The notes under the pieces are model-generated. The model was not told the origin of the DNA. It saw only the letters and a list, made by a program, of their open reading frames with translations, and made no database searches. Below, piece by piece: positions 7,138-52,765 of a stretch of DNA of 64,000 nt. The translations under genes and the position numbers were made by a program. This stretch comes from Psammoneis japonica (Eukaryota): NCBI GenBank assembly GCA_008632985.1, contig QPGO01000001.1, forward strand, positions 302,600 to 366,599, given 5' to 3'. Within the stretch, counting starts at the first letter, position 1. Each line of letters starts with the position of its first letter.

Positions 7138-7414
7138 CAACAGGATTTGAACAGGATTTAGGTGCGCGCGACATGTCGCGCGCTGTCCAGTTTGCCGCGC
7201 ACAGTTTTGTGTGCTTCAGTTCCGCGCGTTCGCGCACGGTGCAGTTTGCTTTCGAGCCACAAGGCTCACAAGAACAATGACAGTAGCCCGATTGTGCCGA
7301 CTTTGCACGTCTTTCGGCTCCTGCAACTGTCTCTGAGCGGAGACTCATCTGCCATTTAGACAGCAGCAAGGAGTTGTTGTTTGAATTCTTGCCATTTGCC
7401 TTCAATTTCTGTCA
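7138..7414 (+). repeat. 5' LTR (about 277 bp)
   Basis: 7138-7321 aligns with 13956-14124; ends CTGTCA, the inverted repeat of the 3' LTR start TGACAG. Confidence 0.8.
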
Positions 7415-7432
7415 GATTAACAGTCTTGCTCA
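7415..7432 (+). promoter_or_regulatory. Putative primer-binding site
   Basis: GATTAACAGTCTTGCTCA abuts the inferred LTR end; reverse complement contains CTGTTAA, a tRNA-Asn(GUU) anticodon loop. Confidence 0.45.
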
Positions 7433-8336
7433 TTGTCAACCCATTGAGCAACCGCCATCGTCGTCGTTGATTTACCGACGATGACACTTCAATTCTGCAT
7501 GGATCTCCGCATGTGTTCTATGCACATCGGCAAGTCTGCGCGCATTCAATGCCAGGCATCGGCAGGAAGTTAACGTCACCGTCAAATCTCCTCACCGCTG
7601 GACATCTGGATTGATTGTGCTGCCTCTTGTCGCTGAAGACATGCATTCAACGGTCACATCCAAGTCTGTCCTTGATCCTCATCCCTTGACATGCCCATTC
7701 AACGGTCAACGGTCAAGAACCCTGCACATTCAAGGATCTTCGTCGCTGAAGACACACACACATCCACATCTTCACGGCCAAGAACTTGCACCCACTCTTT
7801 GGACTGCGGCTTTGCTGCCACTCTACAAGCACACCGAGTCCATTGCACCTGATCCACCCCAGACTGCTGGTGCTCTGCAGTTCCACTGGGTCCACGAGGA
7901 CGACTGTGAGAGCAAGCAGCCGTGATTGCAGCCTACGTTGGGGCGAGGGTGTTTTTTCCCGCGTTTGTTCGTTCGTCCACAGCGCCTGACGCCTGCATCA
8001 ACTGGCCAGCCTGATCGGGAAATCCAACCGACATAAAACAAGAACGGTTTGGGGGTCTTGTCCACCTCCAGTCAGCTCACCTGCAGGGGTTTGCAACCCG
8101 CTGCTGCGCTCGCAAGCAACCCAAAGCGCCACTGGCTGCGGGTTCAGACCTGCCGGCACAACTCTGCGGACCGGATGGGAAGTTTAGCACTTGACAACAA
8201 ACGGGACAGCACAGCCCGGCAACTTCTGATTTTAAGGCAGTTCAAGATTTCAAGTCAAGTCCATTCTCACCCAAGTTTCAAGTCTGCCTTCGCGTCCCAA
8301 CAAGAGTCGCTTGTCCTGACACCACTTTTGTCTGCC

Positions 8337-11300
8337 ATGGTTCTCACTCGTCAGCAACAAACCGATGGTTTCGAGCACGTTGTTGGAACCGTGCTTGCCC
8401 AAGGTGCTGGGAGCCCTCTTCGTTTGGCTTTGACCCATGACGGCACGGACTTGCATCAAGAACTGTTCACGTTCACACCGTCCCAAATCGACTCGCTTGA
8501 GTGCGACAACGGCACTGATGTGATCCCTTTGCCCCACGGTTGTAAGAACATGTTAGCAGCTCTAGTTGGTCTGCACATTGTCAAAGCACATGAAGGTCTT
8601 GACGTTGCCAATGACTCCTCGTTGTTCACGCATGAGGAGTTCCTTGCCCGCCGCCTCAGCCCCGACTGCATGTCTTCTGTGTCCGTCGGCAGCTTGCCCC
8701 TCGCACCTCTGCATGTCACCAACCCGACCAAGGCACGCGACCCGGTGTTGGACTTCAAGCAAGGCATCAAGCGTGACCCCACCACTTTCACGGCTCTCAA
8801 ATCCGACAAGCAGTGGCACACTTGGCACACCTCACTTGTGGCACAAGCCCGTGCCCAAGACGTCAAGTGCATTCTAGACTCGTCGTACAAACCGACCAGC
8901 CCCGAAGACAAACTGCTCTTTGCTGAACAGCAAAAGCACAAGTTCGCTGTCTTTGAATGCATCCTTCTCACCGACAAGGGCAAGGCTCTCATTCGCGAAA
9001 ATGTGGGGTCTTCTGACGCCCAGACCGTCTGCCGCGCCTTGTCCGAGCATGCGCTCGCCTCCACCCGCGCTTCCATCGAGTCCTCCACCTTGCTCATGCA
9101 CCTTGCCACCGCACGTCTTGGTGATGGCACTTAAAAAGGTCCGACCCACGGGTTCATCCTTCATTGGCAAGATCAGCTGCGCAAGCATGGGGCACTCATC
9201 CCGGCCAGTGACCACTTCTCTGAAGGGCAGAAGCGTGTCATGCTCGAGAATGCCGCACATCCTGTCGAGGAACTCCGTGCCGTCAAGAACCAAGCTGATC
9301 AGCATCGCACGCAGAGTGGCAAGAGCCTCACATGCGATCAACATTGTGGCTTGCTCCTCTCCGCGGCGGCTCAATGCGACAGCATGTTTCAACCCAAGAC
9401 GACACCTCGAGCTCCCCGACGTGCCACACACGCACACGACGTCTGCTCCGAGGAACCATCCGATGATGTGTTCCATGACATCGACAGCGACATTGACGTC
9501 CTTCAGGCCAACGCTGCCTGCACCCGTGGTCCCAGCCTCACCGGTGACCAGTGGAAACGTCTCCCTCCCGACCACCAACAGATTTGGGATTCGTTGCCCC
9601 ATTCCTCCAAGGCAATCATCCTTGAGCATTCTCGTCCGCCTCCCCGCCACCCGCGAGCCAGCAACTGCCATGAGTCCGTTGCGGTCAACCTTCATGACCA
9701 ACGACTTGGGAGTGACGGTGATGTCAACTTGTCCAACACGACTCCTGCTGACTCTGGTGACCCTGCTCCAAATGTGGATGCCACTTCAGATGATCCCATT
9801 CTGGCACACCTCACCAAGCGCAAGCCACCACCACCCGGTGATCTGCAACGCCTGTTGTCTCCTAACCAACCCCCCAATGCTGGTCGACCGGGCCCATCCG
9901 CCGCTCCCTCTACCTCGCCTGCTCCTGCAGATGACACAGAACTTGGCGGCCGCACTCACCGCCGCGTTGACAACCACAATGTCATTTGCTCTGCCTCCGC
10001 TCATCGCTCCACACGCACTGGTGCTCTGGTCAATCGTGGAGCCAATGGCGGCATTGCTGGCGACGACGTTCACGTCATTGCATGCACCTCTTGCCAAGTC
10101 GACGTTCAGGGCATTGACGACCATCAATTGGTGGACATCCCCATTGTCGCCACTGGTGCCGTCATTGAGACACAGCGTGGTCCCATCATCGCCATCCTCC
10201 ATCAGTGCGCATGCACGGGAAAGGGCAAGACCATTCATTCCTGCGGCCAGCTCGAATGGCACAAACATGATGTCAACGATCGCTCTGTCAAGGTGCCCAA
10301 CGGCTTGCAACGTGTCGCCACCCCTGATGGCTGTGTCATCCCAATTGACATCAAGGGCGGCCTGCCTCATGTTGCCATGCGTCCCTGCACTGACGCCGAA
10401 TGGGACACCCTGCCCCATGTCATCCTTGCCAGTGATGACACATGGGATCCTTCCATCCTTGATCACTCTGTCACTGATGATGACCAGCGGTGCGACGCGA
10501 TCTCTGACCTGCAGGACGATCCCACTGCCAACCCATTTGATGAATGCGGCAACTGCCGTCACCGTGTCGTTGTCAACAAGGCCATCATGTCCGCCTCCTT
10601 GTCTGCCGATCACGCATCCATCCTCGATGACCACCTCATTCCGCATGACGACGTGTTCTGCGAGTGTCATCTGCATGCGATTGACCCCAAGGACGACGAC
10701 GTTCCGCCCCCGGAGTGCACTGTGCAGCCCAAGGACCCCCCCTGCGAGTCTCTTCGGCCTTGCTTTGGTTTCCAACCTGCCGATGCGGTTCGTCGTACTT
10801 TCGACTGCACCGCGCAGTGCGCCCGCATGCCCGCTGGTGCACACCTTCAGAAGGCCTGCAAATCGCCCAACCCCGCCCTCAATGTGCACCGCCGCAACGA
10901 GCCCATCGCCACTGACACCATTTGTGCCGACACCCCGGCCATCGACTCTGGTTGCACCAGCGCCCAACTGTTTGTTGGCACCGAGTCTACTGTCACTGAC
11001 GTCTGCGGCACCAAAACGGACAAAGAGTTTGTCAACACACTCGAGGATCAGATCCGTGAGCGTGGTGCTCCATCCAAACTCATCAGCGACCATGCTCAAG
11101 TTGAGATCAGCAACAAGGTGCTTGGGATCCTACGAGCCCTCTTCATCTCCCCAGCTGGCAAAGTGAGCCTCACCAGCAACACCAAAACTTTGCCGAACAT
11201 CGATGCCAGACCGTGAAGTGCGTGGCGAACACTGTCATGGATCGTTTTGGTTCGCCTGCCCACACATGGCTGCTGGCACTCATGCACATGTGCTTCATGC

Positions 11301-14059
11301 TCAACCATGCAGCGTCCCCACGTCTCCACTGGCGCACGCCCCTCGAGACTCTCACTGGCTCCACCCCGGACATCAGCCCATTGCTTCGCTTTCACTGGTG
11401 GGAACCCGTGCACTTCCACCTTGATGACTCCGATTGGCCGTCCGAATCCCGTGAGTTGCGTGGACGCTTTGTTGGCATTGCTGAGCACGTCGGCCACCAG
11501 ATGACCTTCAAGATTCTCTCTGACGAGACTCAGAAGATCCTCTGCCGGTCCAACGTACGATCCGCTGCCACCGATCCTGCAGTTCGAAACCTGCGTCTTG
11601 ATCCTCCTGATGGGGAGCCACCTGAACCCATCATCAAATCTCACCATGACGACAACCCCGTCGATTCACCCGATGGGGAGATCAGGACACCCAAGATGCC
11701 AGTTTTCGATCCGCAAGACATCATCGGATGCACCTTCCTCATGCAGCCACAAGAGGACGGACAACGCCACAGAGCTCGCATCGTCAAGGCCATTGAAGAC
11801 CACAAATGGAAAGTGAGCAGCAATCCCGAGCTCACCAAGTTCGTCTGCTCTGTCAACAACGACGAATGCGAGGAAGTCCTGGCCTGCAACGACATCATGA
11901 ATCACATTGAACAAGAAGACGAAGACACTGCTGTTTGGAAATTTCGACGCATTGTGTCACACGAAGGACCTCTGAAGCCTCATGACCCAACCTGGAAAGG
12001 CTCAAGCTGCGACATTGTGCTTGAATGGGAAAGTGGGGAGATCACGTCCGAGCCTCTTGCCATCATCGCCAAGGACGACCCTGTCACCTGCGCCATCCAT
12101 GCACGAGAGAACGGACTTCTTGACACTGATGGCTGGAAGCGGTTCTGCACCATCGCGAGGCGCCAGAAGAAGCCATTCCGCATGGCCAACCAAGCCAAGC
12201 TTTGCTCCTTCCGCACTGCACCTTGCTGCAAGTGCGGATGCGAAGTTCCCCGGAACTGCAAACATGCCATGTCACTAGACGAACGCAACGGCAACCGCAA
12301 ATGGGGAGACGCAACTAATCTCGAGATGGACCAACTCAAGGAATGCGAAGTCTTCCATGACTGCGGGCCCTCCGAGTCTTCCACTCCTCCTGCGGGACAC
12401 AAGAAGATCCAAGTGCACCCAGCGTACGACGTGAAACACGATGGTTGCCACAAGGCACGACTTGCAGCCGATGGGCACCTCACGGACGTACCCATTGACA
12501 GTGTCTGCTCCGGAGCAGTCTCCCTCCGTGGCCTTCGGCTGATGATTTTCCTGGCCGAACTCAACGAGTTGGAGACATGGGCCACCGACATTGGCAATGC
12601 CTGCCTTGAAGCCACCACCAAGGAGAAGCTCTACATTGCAGCCGGACCCGAATTTGGCAAACTCGAAGGCCACATCCTTGTCATCCACAAGGCCCTGTGT
12701 GGACTGCGCAGCTCCGGCCTCCGCTGGCACGAGCGCTTCGCCGACTGCCTGCGAGCTGAAGGTTTCTTCCCCTGCCGCGCCGAACCCGACATTTGGATGC
12801 GCAGGAACGGCGACCACTACGAATGCATTGCCGTTTGTGTGGATGACCTTGCCATTGCCATGAAGGACCCTCAATCTTTCGTCGACACTCTCACGGAAAA
12901 GCACAAGTTCAAGCTCAAGGGTGTGGGACCGATTGAGTTCCATCTGGGCTGCGACTTTTCCCGGGATCCTGACGGCACCTTGTGCCTGTCTCCGTGCAAG
13001 TACATTGAATGCATGGTCGACAGCCACACACGACTTTTTGGGGAGAAACCCACCACCAACGCCCTGTCACCTCTGGAGAAGGGTGACCACCCCGAACTGG
13101 ACACTTCCGAACTGCTGGGGCCCAATGGCATTCAACAGTTCCAGTCTCTTGTTGGTTCACTCCAATGGGCAGTGTCCCTTGGTCGACTTGACATCACTGC
13201 GGCCGTCATGTCACTCTCTAGCTTCCGAGCTGCACCCCGTCAAGGCCACTTGGATCGTGCCAAACGCGTCTGTGGGTGCCTCTCCAAGATGCGACACGGC
13301 ACTCTCCGCGTTCGCACGGAAGAGCCCGACTGTTCGGATCTCCCTGCTCCGGCCTGTGAATGGATGCATTCCATGTGTGGCGAAGCAGAAGAGATGATCC
13401 CGAAGGACGCTCCACCGCCCCTTGGCAAGTTCGTCACTGCCACCCACTGCGTCGATGCAAACTTGTGCCATTGCATGCTCACCGGACGCTCTGTCATGGG
13501 AATGCTCCACTTCCTCAACAAATTCCTGGCTGATTGGCTCTCTAAGAAGCAAGCCACCATGGAGACTGTGACCTGCGGGTCTGAATTTGTTGCCGCAAGG
13601 ACTTGTGTCGAGCAGATTGTCGACCTGCACATCACCCTGCGCTGCCTCGGCGTCCCGATCCGTGACATTGGTTGCATGTTCGGTGACAACAAGTCAGTTG
13701 TAGACAGTGCCACCATCCCGCACTCCAAGTTACACAAGCGACACACCGCACTGTTGTTCCACCGTGTGCGCGAGGCTGTTGCCTCTGGTTGCCTTGAGCT
13801 CCACTTCATCGAAGGCTCCCGCAACCCTGCTGACATTCTCAGCAAGCATTGGGGTTGCTCCCAAGTCTGGGACCTTCTCCGCCCCCTCATGTTCTGGAAC
13901 TTCATTCCATCTAAAGTCGAGTCTGTTTCTGTGACTCCTCAAGCAAACTGGGGAGTGACAGGATTTGAGCAGGATTCAGGTGCGCGCTGTTTAGTTCACC
14001 GCGCACAGTTTTGTGTGCTTTGGTTCTGTGCGTTCGCGCGCGATGTAGTTTGCTTTTGA
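8337..14059 (+). pseudogene. Copia gag-pol polyprotein pseudogene
   Basis: ATG 8337; stop 9132-9134 within DGT*KG; protease LVNRGANG (D->N); integrase TDT...SDHA; frameshift near 11150; RT KARL..DG, DIGNACL, KALCGL, CVDD (12836-12847); RNase H DNKS, NPADILSK. Confidence 0.95.
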
Positions 14060-14124
14060 GCCACAAGGCTCACAAGAATGACAACAGTGGCCCGATTGTG
14101 CCGACTTGCACGTCTTTCGGCTCC
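13956..14124 (+). repeat. 3' LTR, truncated
   Basis: Starts TGACAG after the PPT; similarity to the 5' LTR stops at CGGCTCC (14124). Confidence 0.85.
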
Positions 14125-14708
14125 GGCTTTGCGGCACATGCATGACTTCTTGAAACTCTGCTGCCAGCACTCATGTTGAGCAGTTCATTTTGCCAGAGAC
14201 ACAGGCAAAAAACAACAAGATGCCAACAAGGCATTCCTCACATCTTCAACTCTTCGTCTCAGCGTGCCTCTTGTCTTCCAGTGTTAGCTACAGCACTTCA
14301 GGTTATGACGCCGATTCTTGGACTTGGACGACAGGACGGGAAAAGTTTCGATTTTGCGAAAAAATTGCGGTTGCGATGTGACGGCTTTCAAAAAAAATAT
14401 ACATTAAACCCATGCGTAAATCTTATAATGTACGGCAACGCCTAGCTCTAACACTATCACTCATACAGTTAACAAAGTCGTGCAGGAATCACATGTATGA
14501 GGAAGTTCATATACTCTCTAGATTTATATAAGCATGGATTACGGAAGACTAACGCCGCAAACGCCAATTCGAAATTTTGAAAGAATCAAGCGAGCAAAGC
14601 AAGCCATCACTTTTCACCTGCTCGTTTCACCTTTTATTAGAGTACCGCACAGTTGGTGGACATCAAATTGACGTACGGGCCTCTGTTAAATGGTGGAAAA
14701 ACGGCATT

Positions 14709-16494
14709 ATGCTCATTGCAGGGCGAGTTACGACATCTTCGGTGAAGAAGGTTTTCTACTTTGCTTGCACGAGTTGCTTCATGATAAGGTTCTTCACGAT
14801 GTGGACCGAGCAGTATCAAATAATAAGTCTAACGCAGATCCCTCAAAGGAAGCACAAGCACGTCAAGAATAGTTCATTTGCTAATATCTCGTTACCAGAC
14901 GAAACCTACGAGACAGAAGCAGAGGATGGCCCTCAAAGGAAGCACAAGCAAGTCAAGAATAGTTCATTTGCGAAGATCTCGTTACCAGACGAAACCCACG
15001 AGGCAGAAGCAGAGGATGGCCCTCAAAGGAAGCACAAGCAAGTCAAGAATAGTTCATTTACGAAGATCTCGTTACCAGACGAAACCCACGAGGCAGAAGC
15101 AGAGGATGGCCCTCAAAGGAAGCACAAGCAAGTCAAGAATAGTTCATTTGCGAAGATCTCGTTACCAGACGAAACCCACGAGACAGAAGCAGAGGATGGC
15201 TTTTCATCAACCAAGAATAAGAACAACGAGACGTCTAGAGAACAGGAACGCTGGGATGCCTTTAAGAAAGACTATTGGAAGCGAAATCACAGACAACCCC
15301 CAGACTCGTTGAGGCAGTGGTTGGCGTTTGCTGTAGAGAAGAAATGTGCAACAAGAAGGTTTTATGATTCCATCAATCACCACCTGCAGTTCTTTCGCAA
15401 TTCTTCCTTGTCACTCGAGGATATTGTTCCTGGAGCCTCCAACTACACAAACTTTTTCGTTGCTTTTTCTCTCAAGAATAACAAGCTGAATGTCGAAAAC
15501 TATCAAGTTCCAAAAAAGCTATTTGAAGAGAAATTCCCTAGATCTGTAGAGCGCTGGCGATTGTTGCTGCGTCCTTTGGTCAAGCACAAGCCACCTCTTC
15601 GAACCAAGTTTGTCGTGAACCTCGACGACAAAGGAAACACAAAGAAAGACAGCACGTTTCCGCTTCTTTCATGTAACCACTGGTTCAAGACTCCAAACCA
15701 GGATATTACGTTTGATAATCGACTGAATTGGAATGAAGCATTAATTCCAAGCCATAATGCCCGTGATCTTTTAGTTCCATATAAATGGAGTATTGTTCCC
15801 GAAGACAAACCTGCAGGACAACGACGGCCTCGAGGACCTGAATGGAAAAAGCGAGATGACGTTATTATTTGGAGAGGTTCAACAACAGGGGAATGGTTTA
15901 CTGGTCCACGGTTCAAGCTGCTTGAAATGTTCGGTGGGTCAGGTGTCCATCCTATTGCTCTCAATGCTTCTGTGGACGTCGATTTTGCGTTTGTCAGGCC
16001 GCTCGTTAACAGCAACGAGAACGACTTGGATACGAATAAATATCGAATCGCAGACAAAATTGTTTATGAAGACATTCAGAAGCACAAGTATGTTATGGAT
16101 GTGGATGGACATGGTGAGTTAGTGAACATGGCTCATCCATGATGGTTGTGCTTCCGGCATTGGCAAAATTCTTCGTTCTTACGTACCTGCTATAATTACA
16201 GCTTTCTCAGGACGCTTCCCAAGTCTCTTGGCTTCAGGATCGCTTGTTTTTAAATCAACCAGGTATCAAGAGTGGTTTTCCGAACGTGTCATTCCCTGGG
16301 TGGATTACATTCCTGTCAAGTACGATCTAAGCGATCTTGTCGAGAAGGTCGAGTGGGCTCATTCTCATCCGAACATAGCTGCCCGCATTGCAAGACATGC
16401 TCGATCGACCGTCAAGAATCATCTTCGTCGAGAGGACCAGCAATGTTACACTTACAGGCTTCTTTTAGAGTACCATGATCTGTTTCATTACTAA
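14709..16494 (+). CDS. Glycosyltransferase family 90, paralogue B
   Basis: Colinear with paralogue A; same intron position (16114-16201); N-terminal signal anchor. Confidence 0.9.
14841..15200 (+). repeat. Coding tandem repeat, 4 x 90 bp
   Basis: CCTCAAAGGAAGCAC at 14841, 14931, 15021, 15111; unit PQRKHKQVKNSSFAKISLPDETHEAEAEDG. Confidence 0.97.
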
Positions 16495-29847: not shown

Positions 29848-31339
29848 ATGACACCGCCAAGCGATTTCGTGTTGCGTATTGCGTTGTTACGTGGTGACGA
29901 TGATCTGACGGAGCTGTCTCCGTCCGTTTGGCGAATCTTTCGATGTAGTAGTGGAATTAATCTCGATGCGTTTCAGGACAAAATCTTGCAACCCATCATG
30001 GGATGGCAACGAAATTACCACGGCTATTACTTCAAAAAGGCCAACACGTACTATTATCAATCGGAGACGAGCACTGCGGATTGTTTTGGCATGCACGACA
30101 GCTACCGAGCAATGACGGAGAGCGTGTAATCCAACCGAATACACACTTGGAGATGTCCTCCAGCGCAAGGGTGATTCGTGTTACTATGCATATGATTTAG
30201 GGGATCACTGGTATCACAGACTGACTGTCGAGCAAGTAATTACAGACACGGAGGAGAAATTGTTTGGAAAGGCAATTGTACTTGATGGGGCCATGCGCTG
30301 TCCGGATGAGGATGGCGAAGGAGGACACAAGTACCAAGAAAAGGTGCTTGACTTGTACAATTTGCTTCAGGCAGATCCTGACAATGTGTCGTATATCCGT
30401 GATTATGCCCAAGCGTGCTTTGATCGGGTAAATCCACTCAATGTCGAAGGACGCTTTTTTGCAGACGAGTTTGCCGTGGATCATGTTCAACAAGCTCTAC
30501 AGGATGCGTTACGATCGCGTGCAACTTACCGAATGGGGGGCATTTCGCCCGATGCTCTTCCTGGTAGCATGTTTGCTTCGAAAAACAAGACTGAAATCCT
30601 AAAGGTTGGTCCAGGCTTACGAAAGCGTAGCTTTTATCATGAGGACTTGCGAGGCCATACAGGTGGGCCGCTCGCTCCACCCTTTTACTGGAGAATGCTG
30701 GAAATTGTTCATGTCAAGCCGGACGACGAGAAATTTGCCCTATGCGCGGCTTGCGGGAACCCCCATGATCTCAAACGCTGTGGACGGGTGCGTATAAACA
30801 CTATGTTATCGTTCCTATGCTGTGTTTATACACGTTTTCTCTCAACGGTTGATATTTCTTATTGTCTCTATTATTGTTTATTCTCTCTAGTGTCACACGG
30901 CACGCTATTGTAGTCGCGATTGCCAGTCGGCTGACTGGAAGATCCACAAGGCCACCTGCAAACAGGACAAGCGATACTTTGAGGCGTACATGGCAGAAAA
31001 GGAGGGACGCGCACAAGTTCCTCAAGGCATTATCGATACAGGCGATCGGAGACCTTTGCGCAAATTTGATCCCGAAAATATGCGTTTCATGGTTGGACAA
31101 AAGTCGAATGCATGATTGGTCATAATGTTTGGGGTACCGGCGAGATTATTCGTGTTTTGCACGAGTGTGAAGGAATAGTTCATGCTTACCAAGTCCAACT
31201 TGATCGTGAAACTGCCAACAAAATGGGCGTTCCCTATTCGCGGGCGCTCATTTGGGCAGACTGGGATTGCGATTACCAAATCAGGGAAGTTGATGACCAG
31301 CGTAAAGTTCCCAAGAACACCATGGAAATCGTGGACTAA
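29848..31339 (+). CDS. pRiA4b ORF-3-like domain plus MYND zinc finger protein
   Basis: VWRIF..LQPIMGW..YH, YDLGDHWYH, RCPDED; CAACG..LKRCGR|CH..YCSRDCQ..DW..HK..C across intron 30788-30889; frameshifts near 30128 and 31090. Confidence 0.8.
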
Positions 31340-32153
31340 AAAGAATGTTAGAATGAGAGGCTCCGTTTATGCAGATATAATCGATATCCTTCTCACTACT
31401 TTTAGCGACAGCAGATCTTGGGTCTTGGCGGCGGCAAGAAAAACTCTAGGATAATCAGTCGAAGTAATCAAGAGCATGCCGCAGTGAAAACACAGCTTCA
31501 TCAAGCTGGCAGGTTATTGTTGTTTGTTGCGGTTGCGCGGTTACAGTTCGTTGTTCTTGTTATCACGTTACACCATTGTGATGAGCATTTTTGAGTAACT
31601 TTAAGACGGTCTTGCAGCGAGATTTGATTCGGAATTCTCCTCCATGGTGTGATGATGCACACGCGCATGAAAATTGCCCTCGTAAGGCGCAGCGTTTCAA
31701 CCACCACTGTCTCTGCGAAACGCAGCCTTCAGGACAATTATATAAGCTAAAATGGGGCGCACGACTGTCACATGCCAAACTTACCAACCGACACATGAGT
31801 GGGAGGCATGGGTGAGAAAACAAGTCTCCGACGAGTCACGCACCATCCAGATCAATTTGTTTTGATTGGATGAAACGCATCATGAATCGTGATTGATGAG
31901 ACGCGACACAACGCGACTGCGGCAAACGCGAAAAATCAACCAATCACACGAATCCTTTGTCTTTTTGCTTCAAGTTGGTAAACATTGAGAATTCGCCAAG
32001 ACTGCCTTTTCTCTCAAAATACCGATCGTGAACTGTAAGCGCAGAATACAAATAAGAGAGTAGAGGCTGGAGGAGAGATATGTAATCATTATGGTTGTCG
32101 ATAGCACTGCTCGCGATACACAAAATGACAGCAACACAAGGAATCGAGAAAGG

Positions 32154-32507
32154 ATGGAACAAGCGCAAGAACAAGCACCATCGCTTTATGGATTATCGCC
32201 TCCGACGGTGATAGACATGCCGGAAGAATTCGCTGGAGACATTGTTCTTGATCAAGAAGACGACGGGGAAGAGCTCATCCACATCAAGTACACTATTGCT
32301 GCCTTGTTGATGTATGCGGGAATTGTGGTAATGGCTCTACTGATTGTTTCAATCTTGAAAATAGCGTCCAACAGCAAGGCCAGCAGCTCCGCAACAACAA
32401 ATCATGTGCCATCCACGGCACCAACAATTCTTCCAACTGTGCTGCTGTCAACTACTCATTCACCAACAGTTGCTCCTACAAGTGTTGTGCTTGGGCACCA
32501 TCACTGA
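32154..32507 (+). CDS. Short or truncated single-TM protein with Ser/Thr/Pro stalk
   Basis: TM segment IAALLMYAGIVVMALLIVSIL followed by PSTAPT-type repeats; 3' end runs into block C. Confidence 0.4.
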   Translation: MEQAQEQAPSLYGLSPPTVIDMPEEFAGDIVLDQEDDGEELIHIKYTIAALLMYAGIVVMALLIVSILKIASNSKASSSATTNHVPSTAPTILPTVLLSTTHSPTVAPTSVVLGHHH

Positions 32508-32519
32508 GATTGGAAAGGG

Positions 32520-32990
32520 GGTTGCATGACGTGTAGCTTGCGTTTCATGGCAGAACAGATCACGTTGGAGGATAAAGCACATGCACCACAGTTTGCTTTT
32601 TGCCAACAGGCATTTGATGGCGAAGAGAAGCGTCAAAAAAGAATGCAAGGATAGCATTAATGAACAAAATCTAAAGCAGTGTACATTAAGTTCCACGCAA
32701 AGATGGTCCCTGCTGTTGCACGCAGTGCACATCTCGTGACGCCTTTTTGTCATTGGTTTCTAGCCACAGGCGAAGGGCTCCATGGCAATCTTGACTTTTG
32801 GCTTTGAGCAATGGCATCAGGAACATCATCTGGTGGGCTCTGAATGTTGGTTCTGCCAAAGTGATTGACACTCTCAAGAACAACAATCAATTCATTTGGT
32901 TTCCTCCATTGGCTGTTGCTCAAGGCACACACATCTTCCCTGATTTGGCTTCATGACCCAAGCCTCTCTCTGGCAATGGATGCCCCAGTC
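32520..32990 (-). pseudogene. Decayed copy of the hydrolase-like region at about 38490-38950
   Basis: ELIVVLESVNHFGRTNIQSPPDDVPDA vs ELILLDGVNHFGITSIQNPPGAIPDA; DNA similarity extends into the 3' flank. Confidence 0.8.
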
Positions 32991-33759
32991 ATGCAGGTGC
33001 CTCTTGCTGGCAGGCATCTTGCTCACAGGTCAGCAGGATGATCTCTGGATCAAAAGCACTGGACGTGCAAATTGCTGCAAGAACTTGAGGGCAGTGCAGT
33101 GCACTGGCTGAGCTGCAGCCAAAGTGAGAGCTGCCATGCTCTCTGGCATGCCACTGGCACTGCACTCAATCCTGCAAACATGAGGGCAGCACAGGGTGAG
33201 AGCTGGGAGAGATCTGTTGTCAGTTTGCACCATCCCTGCAGCAGGAAATTGTTGTGCCACACATGCTTCTTTGGTTGGCACACCATCCAACAAAAACTCT
33301 GTGTTGTCTTCTTTCCCCACAGAACAGCGCTGTGACATCAAAGGGCCAGGAAAGGGCATTCTGCCCCATGTGCAAGAGAAGTGCAAAGAAAAGCATTTGT
33401 TGCACATGCAGTTCTGCACAGTGTGACCCACCTGCACACCACCATTTTTTTTTCGCAGCACAAACAGATGCACCACACCCTGCACTGTTGCCAAAACCCC
33501 ATTGGCAATTCCTGCAATGATGCAACTCAGCCAACACATGGCTCTTGCACCACACAGCTTTGATGCAGAGCAGCACAACTTCATCGGCACTTGCCAGAAA
33601 ATCACATTGCAAAAAGCAGAGCAGGGCACAACATTGCTGCACCCACCACCAAAAAAAGCAGGTGTGTCATTCTCTTTGCCAATGGCATTGTGGACCAACA
33701 TTGGAGATGCATGCCTTGGCCTGCTGTGGCAGCAGCGGAGCACAGAAGAAGACAGCAAA

Positions 33760-34035
33760 ATGACAACCACATGGGAGCAGCTCTGGTCAATTCAGAGCAG
33801 CCTGCAGATTCCTTTGGCAATCTTGTCAATCATTCTTGGATTGGCAATGACCACTGCAGTTGTTCTTCAAGAACAGAGGAAAAGCCAGAAGCAAACACTC
33901 ATGTGCCATGCTGGGTCTTGCATTTTGGTTGTCTGAGTCAGCTCCTTGGGGCATGGCACTTGGGCTTGGGGAGCTGCCTTTCATGTGGAATGATTTGGAC
34001 ACATGTGCACAGCTCAGGACTTTCTCTTTGTCTTG
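33760..34035 (+). pseudogene. Decayed 5' fragment of the GPCR-like gene at 36744
   Basis: MTTTWEQL..LQIPLAILSII vs MPPTLEQL..LQIPSAILSIV; DNA alignable with an internal deletion. Confidence 0.85.
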
Positions 34036-36743
34036 TTTGAAAGAACAAAAAAGAAAAGCACTGGCCATGTGTCCACCACCAAAAGCCAGCTCTGTTCTCC
34101 ATGCCAATGTGGCCCTCCTCATTTTCACTCCCACTGGCCATCCACACTCTTGCACTTGAGCCTCAGTTGGCTGGTGCACTCCATGAAAGACATGATGCCA
34201 TGCTGTGCCACATGTTTGTTGTGAAGAACTTGAAAAAATCACACCACATGGAACAAATGTGGCAGAGCTTAAAAACTCACCATGCTGCAACATTCTGGAA
34301 ATGATGTTGATTGCTTGGGGAGCACAGCAGCTGGTCAACTGTTGCACCACCACCATGCAAAGCTTGAACAAACCACACCATGTTGCATGAAAAAGATGTG
34401 GCACGGTCTGTGTGCCACATTGCAGCACAACACAGCCAGGGTGAGAAAAGGACTGCAGAACTCTGAAAACAATGGGTCAATTGTTGTCACTGCACACAGC
34501 TGGCCAGGAGTTGCACTGCCACATGTCACAGCCAAAGACTTGCATTTTTCAGGTCAAGAAAACAAGACAGCATGATGACAGTGAGTTGACTGGGCTTGAT
34601 GTGGGGGGTCAAAAAATCATGCAAGTGCAGCAAAGCTCAAAGTGGACAGCAACCAGAGTTCACAGCAGATGTTGAAACACTGCCAGCAGGAGACACAGCA
34701 GAGCTCATTTCACAACATGGCAGTTGGGCAGAAGAGAAATCACACAGCACATGGGGGGGGGGGCAGTGCTCTGACTCCATCTTGATCAATGGTCAGCACA
34801 GGAAGCCACCAAAGAGCTCCAACATGCATCCACTCTACAAAGAGGTCTTGCATTTTTTCAAACTCTGGTGGAGTGGCAGATGCAGTTGGTGAGCTTGAAA
34901 CAGCACCAATTTTTTGCCAATGACAGCAACTGTGTTGGCAACAACAGATTGACTTGGCTGCCGGCGCCTCTTGCCTTGTTGTTTGATGTTGACCTTCTTC
35001 CTCAAGAATCTTTTGTGACTGCCTTGCATGTTTCTCCAAATGTTTCTTCAGCTGTTGCTGAAACAGGGGGCCTCTCTGTTTGACTCTCTTAGACCACACA
35101 CTTTGATCTTCAAGATTGTAGAACAAGGTGATGGGTCAGTCATCCAGGAAGATGTTGCTGCCATGTTGGGAAGATGCTTGCAAGAACAGAGGGAGGGCCC
35201 TCGTCTTGCCAAGCCAAAGCTTGTGGAATTTTGCTGATTGCTTGTTTTGCTCTTTGCCTCATGGAGTCTGTGAATGGGCACTTCCTCTTGGGGTGCACTT
35301 GTGCGCCCCCCTGCCTGCATCAGCCAGACTTTGAGTTTTCCAGCAAAGCAGGTGCGGATTTTCAGCATCATCATCACATCTCCAACACCTTGTCACAACC
35401 CAGTTGGGACATGGTGAATGCCATTTTTTACAATCTCCATGATTTTGGAGCATTTGCAGGGGTGTGCACTTGGTTGCTGCCTCTCAGGAGTCTGCAGAAG
35501 GCTGGAGACAGATTTTTAGTCACACACACAGATTTTTGCGCTTTTGAAACAAAGTGCAGAAGAGTTTCACAAGTGTGGTTGCTGGTCAAGACATGCAGAT
35601 GCTCCACTTGATGCCAAGCACAGAGGTGACTGGGTGACCCTGATCTGCTTTTTCATTTGAAAAGAGCGGGGGGTGCTGCTGCGAGACAGCAGCCACGACA
35701 ACAAAGCTTCACACTGGCAGGAGACAACAAAAGGAGGAGGCTTGGCATTCTGTGAGTCATTGCATGGCTGAAGCTGAGCTGATGGCAATTTACACTGGTC
35801 AAGATGAGCACCCCACTTGGGGTTGAGCTCATCTTCTTAACTTGTCAGAAGCTCGTCTTTCTTGCTGGGCCTCGACACCCCCCATGACGACTGTGTGCCA
35901 ACACCCAAGTCCAGCTCATGAAGGAGGCCAAGAAGTTTACACAGCAAAGTGTTCACACTTTTGCAAGTTATTTTGGCCAGGTGCCACTGGGTGCTGCACT
36001 TTTGTGGTGTGCAACCTGCTGCCAGTGTTGCGGGGTGGGGTGCAGTGCAGCGATGTGTGGTGCTGCAGACAGTGGCTGGTCATTTTTGCTCTCTCTGTGT
36101 TCATGGGCTTCACAATGCCCAGTTTTCAGAGCACCAAAAATGTTCTAAAGATGACAAATGATGACCCAAACCCACCACGTGTGGGCAAACTCCCGTTCAA
36201 ACCGGTGGGGGGCAACTCGAAAAGTTTTGCTCTAGCTGGCTGGAGGCAAACTGTTCGTTCGTGCGTTCAACAACAATGAGACAGTCTGTGCGCGCGCCCA
36301 CAGCAGCGAGCTGCTGCAGTTTTGCGCTGATACGTTGCCAGCGGTACAGTTTCTACGCAATGCCGGTTCCATTAAAGGATGTTGAAGTTATCATACAACT
36401 TCTCCGGCGATTGACGGAACTTTTCAAACCTTGCTGACACGCACGCACAACAACGGACACCACAATAAATACTGTGGCCTACCGTATGTAGGACCATACC
36501 GTAGCGCGACACTGTCGATCTCACAATTCTGCACAGTACGATGTGGTCGTGAAAGTTTGGGGAAATAACAACTCCAGTTCTGGTCGAAATAAGCATCGGA
36601 TGGTTGACACCATCGCATTGTGCTTCCATATTGTTGGATCACAAACTATCTACTTGGTTCTCGAACCGGGAAAACGCCTTAGGGACGCATACCTTCAAAC
36701 CTCCTGTGGTGGGTGAGCATTGAAAAATAATAAAGGCAACAGA

Positions 36744-38116
36744 ATGCCGCCCACACTGGAACAGCTCCGACTGTTGCAGATCCTACAGATTCCTTCAGCA
36801 ATCTTATCGATCGTTGGATCGGCCACGATCATTGGAATCATCCTTCGAAAACGGAGGAAAAGGTTGAAGCAGACATACTATCGCATCATGCTGGGTCTTA
36901 GTGTCTCCGATGTGATATTGTCCAGTTCCATCGCCCTTTCATCTGTACCGGCTCCTCGGGGCATGGGCATGCTTGGGCTTGGGGCTGCCTTTGCACGTGG
37001 AACGATACAGACGTGTACGGCTCAGGGCTTTCTCGTTGTCTTTGGGTCAACAGGGGTAGTCTTCTACACTAGCTCGTTGGCGATTTACTATCTCCTTGTC
37101 GTTGTGCTAGGAAAGTCCCGACGATGGATTGCAACTCGTGCTGAGCGATATCTCCACGCCGTTCCCATTACAGTTGCTCTTGTTTTGGCGATTATTAATT
37201 TGCCCTTGGAAATGTACAATTTTTCAGGCAGCACATGTTGGGTGAATTTGGCTCCACTTGGATGTAGCGACAATCCGAATTTCCCGTGTCAACGTGGCCG
37301 CATCGCGGGAGTCTTAGAGGTCTATGTTTACCGGTGGATAGTTTTTGGCTGGCAAATACTTTTGGCCTTGACCATTACTACAGTTTGTATGCTTGTCATT
37401 TGGTGGCACGTCTGGAAAACAGAAAAGCGTATGAGAAACCGCTACGACTTTGAATTCAAGTCGCGGCATCTCGCTTCTGTAACTATGGATACGACCCAAC
37501 GTACGGGAGATTCTCAACAAGATAATTTCCAGCAAAAAAGAGAACGAGCAAAGATGAGCCGTACGCGACAAGTGGCCATACAAGCACTCCTCTACATTAG
37601 TGCACTGATTATTTGTTGGATCTGGCGATATATTTTCGCCATACAGTTGACGAGGAAGGGAGAGGTTGACTTTCCACGTAAGTTTCATTGAGAAGGAGCA
37701 AGATCCTATTTCGTACTTCTTTTAACACATCTCGTTTGTGCCCCGCAGTCCTTGCAATTGAAAGAATCCTGCAGCCTTTGCAGGGATTCTTCAACTTGGT
37801 GATTTTCCTACGTGTCTACAACAAGAATCGAGGGAATCAACCCGAAGCCGCTTCTCAATCACTCAATCCACACAGCAGCCACGTCAATTCTCTCGCTTTC
37901 CAAATAAATCGATCTCGGCACCGTTTGTCGTTATCAATTACAAGTCACACCAATGTAAGCAAGACCAACGAAAGTAATGAGACGTCGGCTTGTCCGACAG
38001 AGAAGTTGGAGGAAGACTTGGCTTCAGACGGTGCTGAAGAGGACGATGGTTCCACTGGAAGTGAAGATGTTGAAGTTGGAGGAGCACAAGGGGACGAGAC
38101 GACATCTCCAGTTTGA
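36744..38116 (+). CDS. 7-TM GPCR-like protein (cAMP-receptor/Git3-like)
   Basis: Multiple TM helices; RIMLGLSVSD, TCTAQGF, QALLY, PLQGFFN motifs; intron 37678-37748. Confidence 0.85.
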
Positions 38117-38648
38117 TTGCCCGTTCGCACTGGCGCTTGGTACTGGCGATAGAGTGATTTTTGCTTGCATGTTGCATACTTGTACATAGTTTTGATGTTT
38201 TTTAGTCGACAGAGAGTGCTTTGTTTGGCGCCTCTACATTGCGCTGCATATTAGATTAGAGCGTAATCGCGTCTGGTGCCCAGACCTCATGAAACTCGAC
38301 AGGAGCTGCAGATGACACCCGAGACGGGATCGAGAAAATGCATTCATTTACATGCCGCGACGACAGATTCGAGAAGCCGATCTTCAACGCGAGGTTGTAC
38401 GCGATAGTATGTCCTAAACGTTGGTGCAAGCGAGAAACATTGCGCCTACCGGTATCGAGCTTCGGCATAGTACCCTCGCTGGGACTTGGAAGGTTGAATG
38501 CGTGCAGTATGAGTTTCATGGCAGAATATTTGTTGAAGGAAGAAGAATGTGCCATCGTCTTACGGAATGAAAATTGGGCCCATTGCCCAAATAGGCATTG
38601 AAGGACAAAAAAGCGCCAGAGAAAGATTCAATGGAACTAATGATCGAG

Positions 38649-39325
38649 TTACTTATATACGCATTGCACATCACGAATATCTCCCTCTTGTGACATGCGG
38701 CTGTGTTTTTCATCGGCTTTCAGGTACGAATCAAAGAAATCTGCCGCCACCTCTGTAGATCTCGAGGTGCTCCAACCTTGACTTCTTGTTTGAACAACGG
38801 CATCAGGAATAGCACCCGGTGGATTCTGAATGCTGGTAATGCCAAAGTGATTGACGCCGTCAAGTAAAATCAATTCTTTTGGGTCCTCCAGTAGCTGCCA
38901 TTCGTGACATACGTCTTCCATGGGTTCGTCCAAACTTCCCTGGATACCAGCCACAGGCGCCGCACTGGTATCCGAAACTACAGCAGGATGATCCGGATCA
39001 AAAGCGCCGAATACTCCAAACACTGCAGCTGCCTTGAGTTGAGGTGGCCGGGGATAAGATGGTCCTAAACACAACGGGGGTGAGTTGGATCATCATTCAT
39101 TGCTGTCACACTCTCCAATGCATCGTTGACTGTAAACTGAGATCCAAACAGTTGCGGGGGCTGTCCAGGAATAAGCGATTCATAATGGATGGGAACCACC
39201 ACAACATACTGTTTTGCGGCAAGCTTGGAAGCAAACTTGCTGTAGAGGCTTTCATCAACGAGTCCACCTTGTAGCACAACGACTGTTGGAAAGCTTTTGG
39301 GCACTCTTTTTCGTTCTTCTCTCAA
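38649..39325 (-). pseudogene. Chlorophyllase-like alpha/beta hydrolase, internally deleted
   Basis: FPTVVVLQGG..YS.FA..LA...YVVVVP and LDGVNHFGIT lie in two frames joined near 39070; no GxSxG nucleophile motif visible. Confidence 0.6.
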
Positions 39326-40065
39326 TGAACTTCCGCTTATGTGTCTTGCTCCTGCTCGTCTTACTCAGCTTTGCCTTGCTTTTACGAGTCTTGCTCCTGC
39401 TCGTCTTGCTCTACTCCTCTTTATATTGCTCGTTTTTTCGTTTTCGTTTGCCCTTGTTTTGCTATTCCACCTACTCGTCTTCTCAATCGTGGATAGAAAA
39501 TCAAGTCTTGCATCATGACTGAGAAACGTCACCAAATATATGGTATAAAGAGAACATAAAAGTCCTAAGCAATATGTTTTTTCGTGTCGGGTCCTTTGGG
39601 CTTCGTGCGTTGGTGGCGGATGTTGAGCAAGACAACAGCGAACTGCGGTGAAGAAGAATCACTCATCTCTTCACCATGACGGCATGCATCGAAAAGAAGA
39701 ATACCGACAAAGCAAAAGAGCAGAACATAGCCTTTGGTGATGACTTTGTAAAAGGGAAACGAAGGGAAAGGAGTTGGACTGCTACCGGTAGTTGTTGGAG
39801 GAAAAGAATCGTGATTCGTGATTGGAATGACGTGAATCAGCCAATTAGAATCAGGAGACTTGCGTATCCTATTGTCAGAATCCGCAGGTTGATCGCAATC
39901 GATCGTGAGAAAAAATGATGAGGGAGTCATCAATCCTTTGTGGAGCAGCACAACTATGAGTGAATCAAACAAGCCATCTTCATCCAAGAACATCATGAAG
40001 GACGATGACGACGTGATGTGTGATCGCCGTGGGAACAGACGAAAGCAAGAAGAAAAAGAGAAAGA

Positions 40066-48349: not shown

Positions 48350-51300
48350 GGGAGTGTTTCTTTCCTCTCCAGCACAAAATGCATGTGCTGGTGTTCTCCA
48401 AAAAGGTCCTGCAAAAACAAGGTTGTGGTCCAACACAATGGTTGGCAAAAGAAAATGTGAGATCTGATGCTTTCACTGTGCTGCACTGGGGGGGGGGGGG
48501 GGGGGGTGACAGAGAATCCATGAGAGTTCAAGAGCACATGTGTGAAGGGAGAGCAATTGGAAAGAGGCAATGACAAGTCAACCAGACAAGCCACCTTCTT
48601 CCAAGAGCATTTTGAAGGACAATGATGATGATGTCACGAGCAAGAGAAACACTCAAACAAGTGCCTTCAAATGACCATCCTTTGCTACAGTCAAAAAACT
48701 CTCTTTTTCTTGGAGCTTTGACAGGAGCAAAGAGCGGCCAAGAAGAAGAGAAGATGTGTTCCAGCTCCAGGTGGGACCTCGCACTGCAGAGCTGTGACAT
48801 CAAGAGCACTTTGGATCGAGCTGCATGCCACGCACGCGCACACATTTGCATGTGATCTTCTACGAAATTGTTTCATGTTCCCTGTTTTGCAAAGCCAAAG
48901 GCTTTCTATTTTCATTGTTTTCAAAAATGAGAATGGGCCAGGTGCACTCTCAAACATCTGCAGAACACACCAGGGCAAACTGCTGATCATGCACTTTTCA
49001 AGTGTGAAGGAGGAGACATGTTTGCAAAATTGCCTCCATTTTTGTTGACAATCATTCACATGTTCATTGCTCAATGATTTCACTGTGGAGCTCGCATGTG
49101 GAACTCCACAGCCCAAATGTCACATCGAGTCCCACCCAGGGCTGCAACGCATCAGAGTGCTGAGGGGGTCTCCCGAGGAGCGGGGGGAGTGGCAGCTGGT
49201 TGGTTGACTCAAACCTCTCACTGGAGTGAGAGGTGCCATGGGCTGGACTCAACACCACAACAACACTGCTTGCAAGCTTGAGGCTGTTTGCTCAGATGGT
49301 GTGGCGATGCCCAGAGATGGCAGAACCTGGCCTTCTGATGACAAGAACGAAGAACACCGCCGCAGTGGCCTGTTTCCAAAAATGAAACGTGTGCTTTCAT
49401 GACAACTGATCTCTCTTGCTCAAGCTGAAGCTGTGCAAATCACTGCAGAAGAATCCAACAAAGAGCGCAGAGACCCCACGAGGTTGAACCTGAGTTGTCA
49501 AACAAAGCCGTGTGACGGCCAGAAGATTGGCTTTCCTGCACGCACGCGCGCCACGCTGCTGGGAGCTGTCGCGCTCGCGCTCGCTCACACGACAAAAGAA
49601 GAGAAACGGCAACACAAGAATCAGCAGAATTCTGCCCAAGTCGCATTCTTCTGCTGAAAGTGGTGGTGCATGGAGGCACAAAAATTGGCAAAGCGACTCA
49701 GCTCCACCTCTGAAAGGTGCCCTGGTGAGCACACTGCAACATGTGACCCCAATGGATTGTTGTTGTGTACAATGTTCCACTCAAATTTTTATTTTGCCTG
49801 TCATTTTCCAGTGTGGTGAATTTCGTTGACTGTTGAAGCTTGCAGTGGCATTTCCAGGCCCATGTGTTCTAAATGACAGATGTCCTTTGACACACTCCTT
49901 GTTCACATGGGGAAATCAGATCCTGGAACTTTCTGCATCTAGCCAGGTCTAGAGAGGGAATGGACAGAACAATGTGGAGCCGGTTGAAGAAAAGTGATGA
50001 AAAAATGTTTGGCAAGTGTGCTGTTGTGTGTCAACTGCAGAGTCAGTCAGCTGTGGGTGTGTGCTTTTTCTGCATTTCTGTGAGCAATGAACCGGCAGAC
50101 AATGCCCTTGGACAGATCATGGAGTGTTGTTGTTCTTTAGAGTGTTTGCTCTAGAGTGGAGAGCCATGACCAGACAGCTGTGTCAGAAGCACTGATCGTC
50201 TGGGCGTCGCGCATGTGCGTTTTGAACGTGTTGCTGCTCTCTCTTTCCTCCTCCTCCTTTTCCTCTTCTTTTTTTTTCATAAACTTGGAGCTGCCTGTGT
50301 GTCCGGACACATGCCAAATTTCAAGCTCACAGTGCATGCCACTGGATCTTTTGCTTGAGAGCTCGTTGTCTTGCACGCAGCTTTTGTGCCAACAGAGTCG
50401 TGTGAAATTGCACGACGAGCAAAAAACAATCGACAAGAACCAATCAGAAGCCACAAAGTTGAAATGTTGTGCTCTCTTTGCTGGCAAAGACGAGCCAACA
50501 CTCTTCACGCAGTTGAAAATGTGGGGTGCCGGGGATGGAAAATTGGAGCAGTCTGTTCAAGGTTGGCGGCACGAGCAGCAACCATCTGGTCACAAGTGGT
50601 GTCATCTCCAGCAGCACACCACAGTCTCCAGTGGCATCCCATCTTGTTGAGCAGTGCAATCTGGCCAGTCTCTCCAGTTGCAGAGCATTGTCTGTTGAGC
50701 ACTGCAGTCCAGTCTCTCCAGCAGCACATCACATTGCATCAAGCAATGAACATCTGGTCTCTGCTGGTGGCTGGCATTGCACAGCATGGTGTTGCATTGC
50801 ATTGAGTGGTGCAGTCTGTGGCCAATCTTGAGTGGCAACATGTCGAGTGGCAAACATCCAGTCTTGAGCAGCATTTCCAGCAGCAATTTTGCTGCCGGCA
50901 CAAGATGAGTCCCCAACATGCAATCTTCCAATGGCTGCTCTTAAGTGTGTTGTGATTGATTTGGAAGCATGGTTTGTCTTTCGATGGTGGCGCCAAATCA
51001 AACTCTGCCGTCAAACAATTCAATGGGCACTCAATGCCACCAGTTCACCAATGGCCAACTCCTCATGCACTGGAGCTGCCACTGCCAACAGCCTGTCACA
51101 ACAAACAAGTGACTTGGAGCTTCACACTGGCATTGTTCCAAAATGCAAACTCCAGCGTTCTTGCAATGCATGATCTGAGAGTGAAAACAGGGGTGAGCAA
51201 AAGGTGCAGTGGAATGCAAAGCAACAGCAAAACCAGACTTGAGTTCACATGCCACAGATTTGCAGGCAGCTTTCAATTTTTCTGACAAAATTGGTTGTGG

Positions 51301-52765
51301 TTTCACATTGTTTTAGCATTCATCCCACACCACCCCTCACAATGTCATTTTGTGCTGCACAAGCTGAAAATGGAAAACGGATGTGAAGTGAGCAAAACGC
51401 AAGGCAGGGTGCAAAGTGCCAGCAAAACAAATCACATGGGTTTACATGCCATGACTTTGCAGTCAGCATTCGACTTTCTGACTGACTGATTGTGGTTTCA
51501 CATTGGTCTTGTTCCCATGACACTGCTTCCAATGCTCCAGCCCTTGCATGAGAAACACAGAATTGCGTGCAGGCATGCTTGTTTCGTGTTTTTGTCAACA
51601 TCCAAAAAGGAAAAAATGACAAAATGACTTAACACAGCCAACATCACAGCCACACATGGAGAAGCAAATCAAGCGTTTGTCAGAGTTCAGAAAGAACAAT
51701 GAACACACAAGTTGGTGCATGATGCACAAAACGACAAGCTGCCGTTGTCAAACGCCAGTTGACAACACCACACAACAATTGACCGAGGGAGGGATGACAT
51801 GGAACATCACAAAACATCACTGAATTGAAAGTGATCAATGTTGTTTCATGCCACATGAGCTGAGAACAGAAAATGGATGTGAGCAAAACGCAAGGCAGGA
51901 TGAAAGTGCCAGCAAAGCAAATCACAAGTTTGCATGCCATGACTTTGCAGTCAGCACTCAACTTTCTGACTGACTGATTGTGGTTTCACATTGGTCTTGT
52001 TCCCATGACACTGCTTCCAATGCTCCAGCCCTTGCATGAGAAACACAGAATTGCGTGCAGGCATGCTTGTTTCGTGTTTTTGTCAACATCCAAAAAGGAA
52101 AAAATGACAAAATGACTTAACACAGCCAACATCACAGCCACACATGGAGAAGCAAATCAAGCGTTTGTCAGAGTTCAGAAAGAACAATGAACACACAAGT
52201 TGGTGCATGATGCACAAAACGACAAGCTGCCGTTGTCAAACGCCAGTTGACAACACCACACAACAATTGACCGAGGGAGGGATGACATGGAACATCACAA
52301 AACATCACTGAATTGAAAGTGATCAATGTTGTTTCATGCCACATGAGCTGAGAACAGAAAATGGATGTGAGCAAAACGCAAGGCAGGATGAAAGTGCCAG
52401 CAAAGCAAATCACAAGTTTGCATGCCATGACTTTGCAGTCAGCACTCAACTTTCTGACTGACTGATTGTGGTTTCACATTGGTCTTGTTCCCATGACACT
52501 GCTTCCAATGCTCCAATCTTTGCATGAGAAACACAGAATTGCACACAGGCACACTTGTTTCGTGTTTTCCTCAACATCCAAAAAAGAGAAAACAACGAAA
52601 TGACACTTGGCACAGCCAACATCACAGCCACACATGGAGAAGCAAATCAAGAGCCTTTGTTGTCAGAGTTTAGAAAGAACAATGAACACACCAATTGGTG
52701 CGCAATGCAATGACAAGCTGCCATTGTCAAGTGCCAGTTGACAACACCGCACAACAATTGACCAG
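48350..52765. other. TpA-depleted block E
   Basis: TpA rare, TG/CA-rich; local CpG-rich patch 49530-49600. Confidence 0.8.
51190..52764. repeat. 488-bp tandem repeat, about three copies plus a diverged partial copy
   Basis: Identical ORFs at 51680-51961 and 52168-52449; GTGAGCAAAACGCAAGGCAG near 51388, 51879, 52367. Confidence 0.95.

Follow-up and report, generated by a model that had tools for sequence, protein, structure and literature searches.

The window, a 64,000-nucleotide stretch of the genome of the diatom Psammoneis japonica (G000:C2:302600-366599 of a 91-Mb, 597-contig assembly), contains a live GPCR-like gene, a hydrolase gene next to it, and decayed copies of parts of both (Table 1). 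Exon 1 of the receptor gene, searched alone, matched the Pfam families 7tm_1 (E=3e-6, 27.3 bits) and Dicty_CAR (E=6e-4, 19.4 bits), in both cases below the curated cut-offs of 30.5 and 21 bits, respectively. Its intron is absent from a contig of run X2, a run labeled 'DNA?' from one sample of one study, whose contigs skip GT..AG introns. The gene has a TA observed/expected ratio (O/E) of 0.59 and a CG O/E of 0.96. The hydrolase gene, with a TA O/E of 0.54, is apparently broken: ~31 residues with the GHSFG motif are missing and the frame changes. The break may be recent. The sole database match of the hydrolase among longer proteins was a cyanobacterial MAG protein (33%).

Table 1. Features of the window, in window coordinates
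Feature	Position	Strand	Remarks
Copia-type LTR retrotransposon	7140..14232	+	Pfam RVT_2; reference family for the mutation spectrum only
Second dead copy	32465..33080		Derived from 38436-39027 (hydrolase gene tail and last part of the GPCR 3' region); spans the block edge
TA/CG-poor block holding the fragment	~32776..36230 (3.4 kb)		TA 11 vs 219 expected (O/E 0.05); CG 22 vs 210
The fragment, a dead copy of the 5' part of the GPCR-like gene	33701..34034	+	~60 bp upstream and ~first 100 codons
Decayed remnant of GPCR intron end and exon 2 (tentative)	35373..35739	+	Aligns to 37703-38084
Live 7TM/GPCR-like gene, 433 aa	36744..38116	+	Exon 1 36744-37677, GT..AG intron 37678-37748, exon 2 37749-38116
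Chlorophyllase-like alpha/beta hydrolase gene	38649..39364	-	Second dead copy derives from it

The fragment arose by local duplication of the neighboring receptor gene and is now dead; its TA and CG have been rewritten to TG or CA. Homology sets in near 33,701 in the dead copy and 36,679 at the live gene, and the dead copy is interrupted by frameshifting indels and an in-frame stop. Alignment of 33749-34034 with 36733-37042 gave 209 identical columns out of 274 (76%) and a score of 228, compared with a maximum of 40 in 200 shuffles. Searched as DNA against the genome, the fragment returned three matches, namely itself and two pieces of the neighboring GPCR gene; no intact paralogue carrying the fragment's bases, from which it might have been derived instead, was found in this search. 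The initial annotation had described a dead duplicate of the neighboring gene on the basis of six pairs of short sequences, all of which were recovered (33801/36782, 33822/36803, 33914/36894, 33945/36955, 33982/36994, and 34001/37011). Its remark that host-derived, non-transposon sequence is affected is also borne out, as the fragment matches a host GPCR-like gene.

Within 33749-34034 the dead copy has neither TA nor CG, whereas the aligned live stretch has nine TA and 18 CG. None of the seven live TA and 16 live CG that could be aligned is kept: the TA read TG in three cases, CA in one, and otherwise in three, and the CG read TG in eight, CA in seven, and CT in one. Changes from TA or CG to TG or CA number 19 in the dead copy, with none in the reverse direction (p=4e-6, sign test), and are not symmetric. 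For TA alone the count is 4:0 (p=0.125), and 9:0 (p=0.004) when the in-block part of the second dead copy is included. The 19:0 asymmetry sustains the claimed loss of CG, and of both dinucleotides combined, as well as the claimed direction toward TG and CA. However, the loss of TA is established by the block and the repeat families and not by the ~280-bp fragment alone, and for its direction the three TA of seven that changed otherwise and an outgroup that does not polarize TA weaken the claim. The outgroup was the nearest other paralogue (L044), which is 53% identical to the fragment, compared with 73% for the neighboring gene; identity to the live gene reaches 58% for the best paralogue beyond this pair. 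With L044, seven CG transitions appeared dead-derived, three live-derived, and five undecided; for TA the numbers were two, two, and one. Outgroup polarization was abandoned, with L044 too distant and public homologues only 24-38% identical (eight hits). The direction therefore rests on the asymmetry between dead and live copy and on the LTR evidence presented below. Transitions in other contexts occurred at 13 of 108 and 13 of 100 sites (12-13%), so the dead copy is old. Taken alone, the fragment is modest evidence, but the locus provides good controls of positional targeting.

The fragment is no special case; it shares the state of the 3.4-kb block around it and of ~40% of the window. In the core of the block (32776-34830) a single TA was counted where 129 are expected; the left edge is sharp, the right rim graded, and CA and TG are in excess (O/E 1.8-1.9). 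The window as a whole alternates between normal DNA (TA O/E ~0.55, CG ~1.0) and blocks almost devoid of TA, with five or fewer TA in 65 of 160 400-bp bins. The TA that survive in the depleted blocks of the window are YTAR in 30 of 48 cases, compared with 141 of 1004 in normal DNA. The interval 34040-36300 gave a single DNA match in the genome. No transposon was recognized in the block by the genome DNA search or by Pfam in six frames (no credible hit), and comparison with 0.78 Mb of fetched loci by blastn and tblastx gave marginal hits only; a decayed element within the block is possible. Two intervals are covered by contigs of run X2, 30158-32640, to which the TA-keeping part of the second dead copy belongs, and 36624-38553. 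The block stops ~400 bp short of 36,624, where the first spliced GPCR contig starts. The interval 32,672-36,345 has no contig from run X1 or X2 and was not used as evidence (X1 provided only two contigs, at the left edge).

Several other observations concern the composition of the window. A GTPase encoded there has its named relatives in diatoms (Bacillariaceae sp., Fistulifera, Thalassiosira, and Cyclotella). At 30039-30157 two allelic-looking contigs from runs X1 and X2 show many differences and small insertions. A ~490-bp tandem repeat (85-93% identical) lies in a TA-poor block at 51169-52763, and a dispersed repeat at 48753-49275 and 58607-59091 is TA-free in both copies, with many TG/CA mismatches between them.

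The second dead copy crosses the edge of the block and offers an internal comparison. Outside the edge it contains eight TA and eight CG in 267 columns, and within the block no TA and one CG in 252 columns (Fisher p=0.008 for TA and 0.038 for CG). The outer part is itself partly eroded, with three of nine TA and three of 12 CG kept, although the alignment is looser there. Its offset to the template is ~5,980, that of the fragment ~2,980. The tentative remnant of exon 2 was missed by protein HMMs, but of its eight aligned TA seven read TG or CA and none is kept; it reached p=0.007 against dinucleotide shuffles, as one of eight region pairs tested, the other seven being non-significant. The remaining parts of the GPCR gene were not detected in 34,040-35,350 by DNA alignment, protein HMMs, or shuffle-tested region pairs. 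The local copies would fit either an array of tandem ~3-kb units, each with receptor and hydrolase, that has since decayed, or a local duplication with permuted order. An inverted hydrolase remnant at 36,127-36,306 (E=0.018) was dismissed for want of support at the DNA level. A weak 41-bp match between 31866-31906 and 39795-39835 (76%) may be a piece of the local duplication or due to chance.

The mutation spectrum was determined on the copia family represented in the window, whose local copy has lost nearly all TA and kept most CG. In 35 copies, 250 sites of TA origin read TA 1437 times, TG 3735 times, and CA 2699 times (1437 of 7871 kept, 82% lost), whereas at 547 sites of CG origin 14621 of 17540 CG were kept (83%, with 17% lost); these per-site values are biased, since the copies were those most similar to the window copy and site classes were assigned from column patterns. 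TA and CG losses are correlated across copies (rho 0.68). Other-context transitions amount to 0.7-1.3% in 30 copies, where A was changed at 113 of 9698 sites after A, 133 of 14570 after C, and 158 of 15657 after G. TA is thus lost ~nine times faster than CG and ~80 times above background. The hazard depends on the following base as well, with values of 1.74 for TAC, 1.70 for TAT, 0.93 for TAA, and 0.86 for TAG. Comparison of LTR pairs showed that the mutations post-date insertion; they fall on both strands. Copia copies on one short contig (L005, L010, and L109; G000:C468) keep ~45% of the TA-origin sites, compared with 10-31% in the others.

The one-sided effect on the pair of receptor copies, to which the initial annotation had pointed as a contrast to RIP, is real, and the sparing of the live copy is very probably explained by its location rather than by duplication. 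The live gene retains 51 coding TA, 31 of which could be erased silently, and four intronic ones; we therefore consider that it was never exposed, rather than mutated and then cleaned by selection. In the 23 complete LTR pairs among the 35 copia copies, a TA had survived in the 5' LTR alone in 56 cases and in the 3' LTR alone in 21. Individual pairs were entirely one-sided (13:0 in L089 and 7:0 in L082), and the 5' flanks of both copies are normal DNA. A systematic spreading of mutations from copia copies in the 3' direction was ruled out, because normal DNA can border a copy at its 5' or its 3' end. The window copy and 11 selected others were also inspected by eye. Nine normal flanks open with an outward-directed ORF; L086, with an ORF pointing in, and L079 and L106, with erosion reaching into the ORF start, depart from this pattern.

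Duplicates elsewhere behave according to their surroundings. The live pair 3618-4829/15268-16489, 77% identical, shares 25 TA and shows symmetric TA changes (12 vs 10), with a skew in CG changes (18 vs 5). Four 90-bp tandem units (96-97% identical) were noted at 14840-15200, in an ORF (14553-16142) that is a paralogue of 3317-4510. Of 20 GPCR paralogue loci fetched from 33 matches, 18 have a TA O/E of 0.45-0.87, and the two exceptions, L047 (0.03) and L051 (0.20), both lie in TA-poor blocks. L047 (G000:C121:162156-165683), a dead but full-length GPCR paralogue, is embedded in an extended block poor in TA and CG; its 175 aligned residues include no Tyr, with His or Cys at the conserved Tyr positions. 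At L051 (G000:C71:239520-248400) a young copia element splits a single-copy GPCR-like gene. The half beyond the 3' LTR contains eight TA in 786 bp (TA O/E 0.18, CG 0.81), and the other half 17 TA in 640 bp (TA O/E 0.41, CG 0.85). Nine TA changes in the 3' LTR and one in the 5' LTR were counted by eye, together with two CG changes, and in our reading the target-site duplication is mutated twice on the 3' side. TA loss at L051 comprises the promoter-side half of the gene and the 3' LTR and ends sharply near 248,400, with CG mostly kept. Because the promoter-side half is affected, a link to transcription requires that this promoter was silenced.

We propose that the dead duplicate lies in a silenced block in which the adenine of TpA is deaminated by a host enzyme, with methylated CpG decaying at a slower rate; for this explanation as a whole we estimate a probability of about 0.6. 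The block of silenced chromatin would end where active promoters or transcription units begin, and it might have been seeded by a decayed element or by the failed tandem duplication itself. The host DNA adenine deaminase would act on the A of TpA, most readily in TAY, and the resulting hypoxanthine would be read as G at replication, while the loss of CG would reflect the slower deamination of 5mC at CpG. As the chemistry behind the loss of TA, adenine deamination is slightly favored.

Candidates for the enzyme would be a moonlighting ADAT2/3 or an undetected deaminase. Pfam matches in the genome comprise nine to PF00383, five to PF14437, four to PF02137, and 27 to PF00145 (C5 methyltransferases). 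The deaminase genes include TadA-like, ADAT2-like, dCMP, RibD, and other small types as well as two A_deamin loci, where labels beyond Pfam are our reading; judged by sequence they appear to be of the expected housekeeping types only, and none stands out. The ADAT2-like gene carries the HAE and PCxxC motifs as well as the N to which Mettrop et al. draw attention, but genes of this kind occur universally. No fusion of a DNMT with a deaminase was present in the 13 DNMT loci inspected. The MPG/AAG glycosylase (PF02245) had no match in the genome, with the control positive in only four of 14 cases; its absence, if true, would be permissive for the persistence of hypoxanthine in DNA. Two side observations concern these gene families: several copies, nearly identical to one another, of a gene for a C5 DNA methyltransferase (L121, L122, and L127; G000:C301 and C297) have lost their TA but kept CG, and some contain stops; an ORF at L038:313-1785 (minus strand; G000:C79) encodes a 2OG-Fe(II) oxygenase fused to a deaminase domain of the cytidine/MafB19 type.

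The main rival retains positional targeting but places the lesion on T, such that the thymine of R-T-A is modified to 5-hydroxymethyl- or 5-formyluracil, or is mis-repaired, and read as C. Changes from TA to TG and to CA are symmetric, and an A-to-G change on one strand is a T-to-C change on the other, so the attacked base cannot be named from the sequence. 5-Hydroxymethyluracil occurs in dinoflagellate repeats, and 5-formyluracil mispairs with G. No Tet_JBP match was obtained in the genome, which is a weak counterargument with none of 14 controls positive, and the need for a 5'-T matches known adenosine deaminases according to the accessible text of Mettrop et al. We regard a lesion on T as a serious but distinctly less probable alternative to adenine deamination. 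Error-prone repair of deaminated 5mC could also remove TA as a by-product, through the WA errors typical of a polymerase-eta-like enzyme. This would account for the correlated TA and CG losses and their common blocks; however, mutation after A is not elevated (113/9698) and the loss of TA far exceeds that of CG, its supposed trigger, which makes such an origin quite improbable.

A pairing-triggered, RIP-like process of opposite polarity would hit both copies, with the live one restored by selection, or would reach single-copy DNA by leakage. The two or three decayed duplicates of neighboring genes in a block without a recognized transposon would suit such a process, leakage of RIP into single-copy DNA is documented (PMC9453070, in the portion available), and a RID-related DNMT4 is described in diatoms in the available part of PMC9998398. 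Nevertheless, the silently erasable and intronic TA retained in the live gene, LTRs that were identical at insertion and are affected on one side, the sparing of a live duplicate pair of similar identity, and the single-copy NCLDV target in Bigelowiella natans given in the accessible preprint text leave this reading largely refuted and its probability low. RNA editing of an ADAR type, fixed by reverse transcription, could draw on the two A_deamin loci and on the 5'-U preference of these enzymes, but it is refuted by the divergence of LTR pairs after insertion. Both strands are affected within a single copy, as is upstream host DNA that was never retrotransposed, and TAG is the least favored context here, in contrast to the UAG hot spot of ADAR2 (PMC10661471, available part); we give RNA editing hardly any weight. 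Equally negligible is ordinary pseudogene decay or chance. It could be invoked for the fragment, where counts are small and background transitions reach 12-13%, but at the block level it is refuted by the near-absence of TA from the core, CpG decay alone cannot remove TA, and the broken hydrolase gene has retained its TA.

At this locus a diatom shows TpA hypermutation close to saturation, with host sequence as the target, and the internal controls (block edge, one-sided LTR pairs, and spared duplicates) separate position from duplication, the defining feature of RIP. If the proposed explanation is true, silenced DNA in these algae is killed irreversibly by the conversion of Tyr to Cys or His, the fate of gene duplicates is shaped by the process, ages based on LTR divergence are inflated, and old elements are hidden from homology searches. 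A natural DNA adenine deaminase with a TAY preference would be indicated. More speculatively, DNA adenine editing might operate genome-wide in diatoms, in common with distant rhizarian algae, and erase TpA in any silenced stretch between active genes, without need of a transposon, a virus, or pairing. The failed tandem duplication of host genes would then be enough, and a natural nuclear adenine base editor would decide which duplicate dies; we consider this wider view tentative and rather doubtful.

RIP produces C to T transitions mostly at CpA, turning CpA/TpG into TpA, mutates both copies, and has an identity threshold of ~80%; it acts premeiotically and depends on RID/DNMT4. The process described here resembles it in the dense, dinucleotide-specific transitions in repeats, in the two-state genome, and in a spread into single-copy DNA such as that reported in the available part of PMC9453070. 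In contrast to RIP, CA and TG are gained, one of the paired copies is spared, and duplication is not sufficient, nor is it required, although the spared pair with its 77% identity may fall below the RIP threshold. By polarity, symmetry, and trigger the process is not RIP. With 5mC deamination at CpG it shares the change of CG to TG or CA (15 of 16 in the fragment, 17% in the copia copies), but here TA is removed and CG is lost ~nine times more slowly. TadA favors YAC/UACG. ADAR and TadA/ADAT enzymes likewise convert A to G with a 5' T or U; unlike the present case they act on RNA in nature, and the UAG hot spot of ADAR is disfavored here. The 'YAC' preference of TadA was not confirmed in the available part of PMC10661471. 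CpG methylation of transposons is DNMT5-dependent in the diatom Phaeodactylum, according to the accessible text of PMC9998398.

The locus is a variant of a barely described process, as TpA-specific hypermutation was found in only one preprint, on viral inserts in a rhizarian. In the accessible text of that preprint (Mettrop et al., bioRxiv 10.64898/2026.01.13.699255), the viral inserts of B. natans were found to acquire de novo A-to-G changes at TpA only, at a ~1000-fold rate and in some lines only, with ADAT2 proposed as the enzyme. The targets are integrated NCLDV and virophage DNA, the depletion of TA is mild (rho 0.45), and TA-poor, TE-like coding sequences are noted; a term search of the same text returned no occurrence of diatom, pseudogene, CpG, or flank. 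A term search of the CORAL atlas (10.64898/2026.02.02.703326), in its accessible text, yielded no mention of TpA or diatom, and a literature search, with most subscription papers outside its reach, found no diatom report of TpA hypermutation. In B. natans as in P. japonica, TA changes to TG or CA on both strands (here in 82% of TA, compared with ~1% in other A contexts), the changes are confined to discrete regions, single-copy DNA is a target, and an ADAT2-like candidate gene is present. Unlike the viral inserts, the target here is a dead copy of a diatom host gene in a block without a recognized element, and unlike the mild depletion in B. natans, the loss of TA approaches saturation (O/E 0.05) and is accompanied by decay of CG. 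The case in P. japonica works like the TpA hypermutation of B. natans, possibly with a common enzymology.
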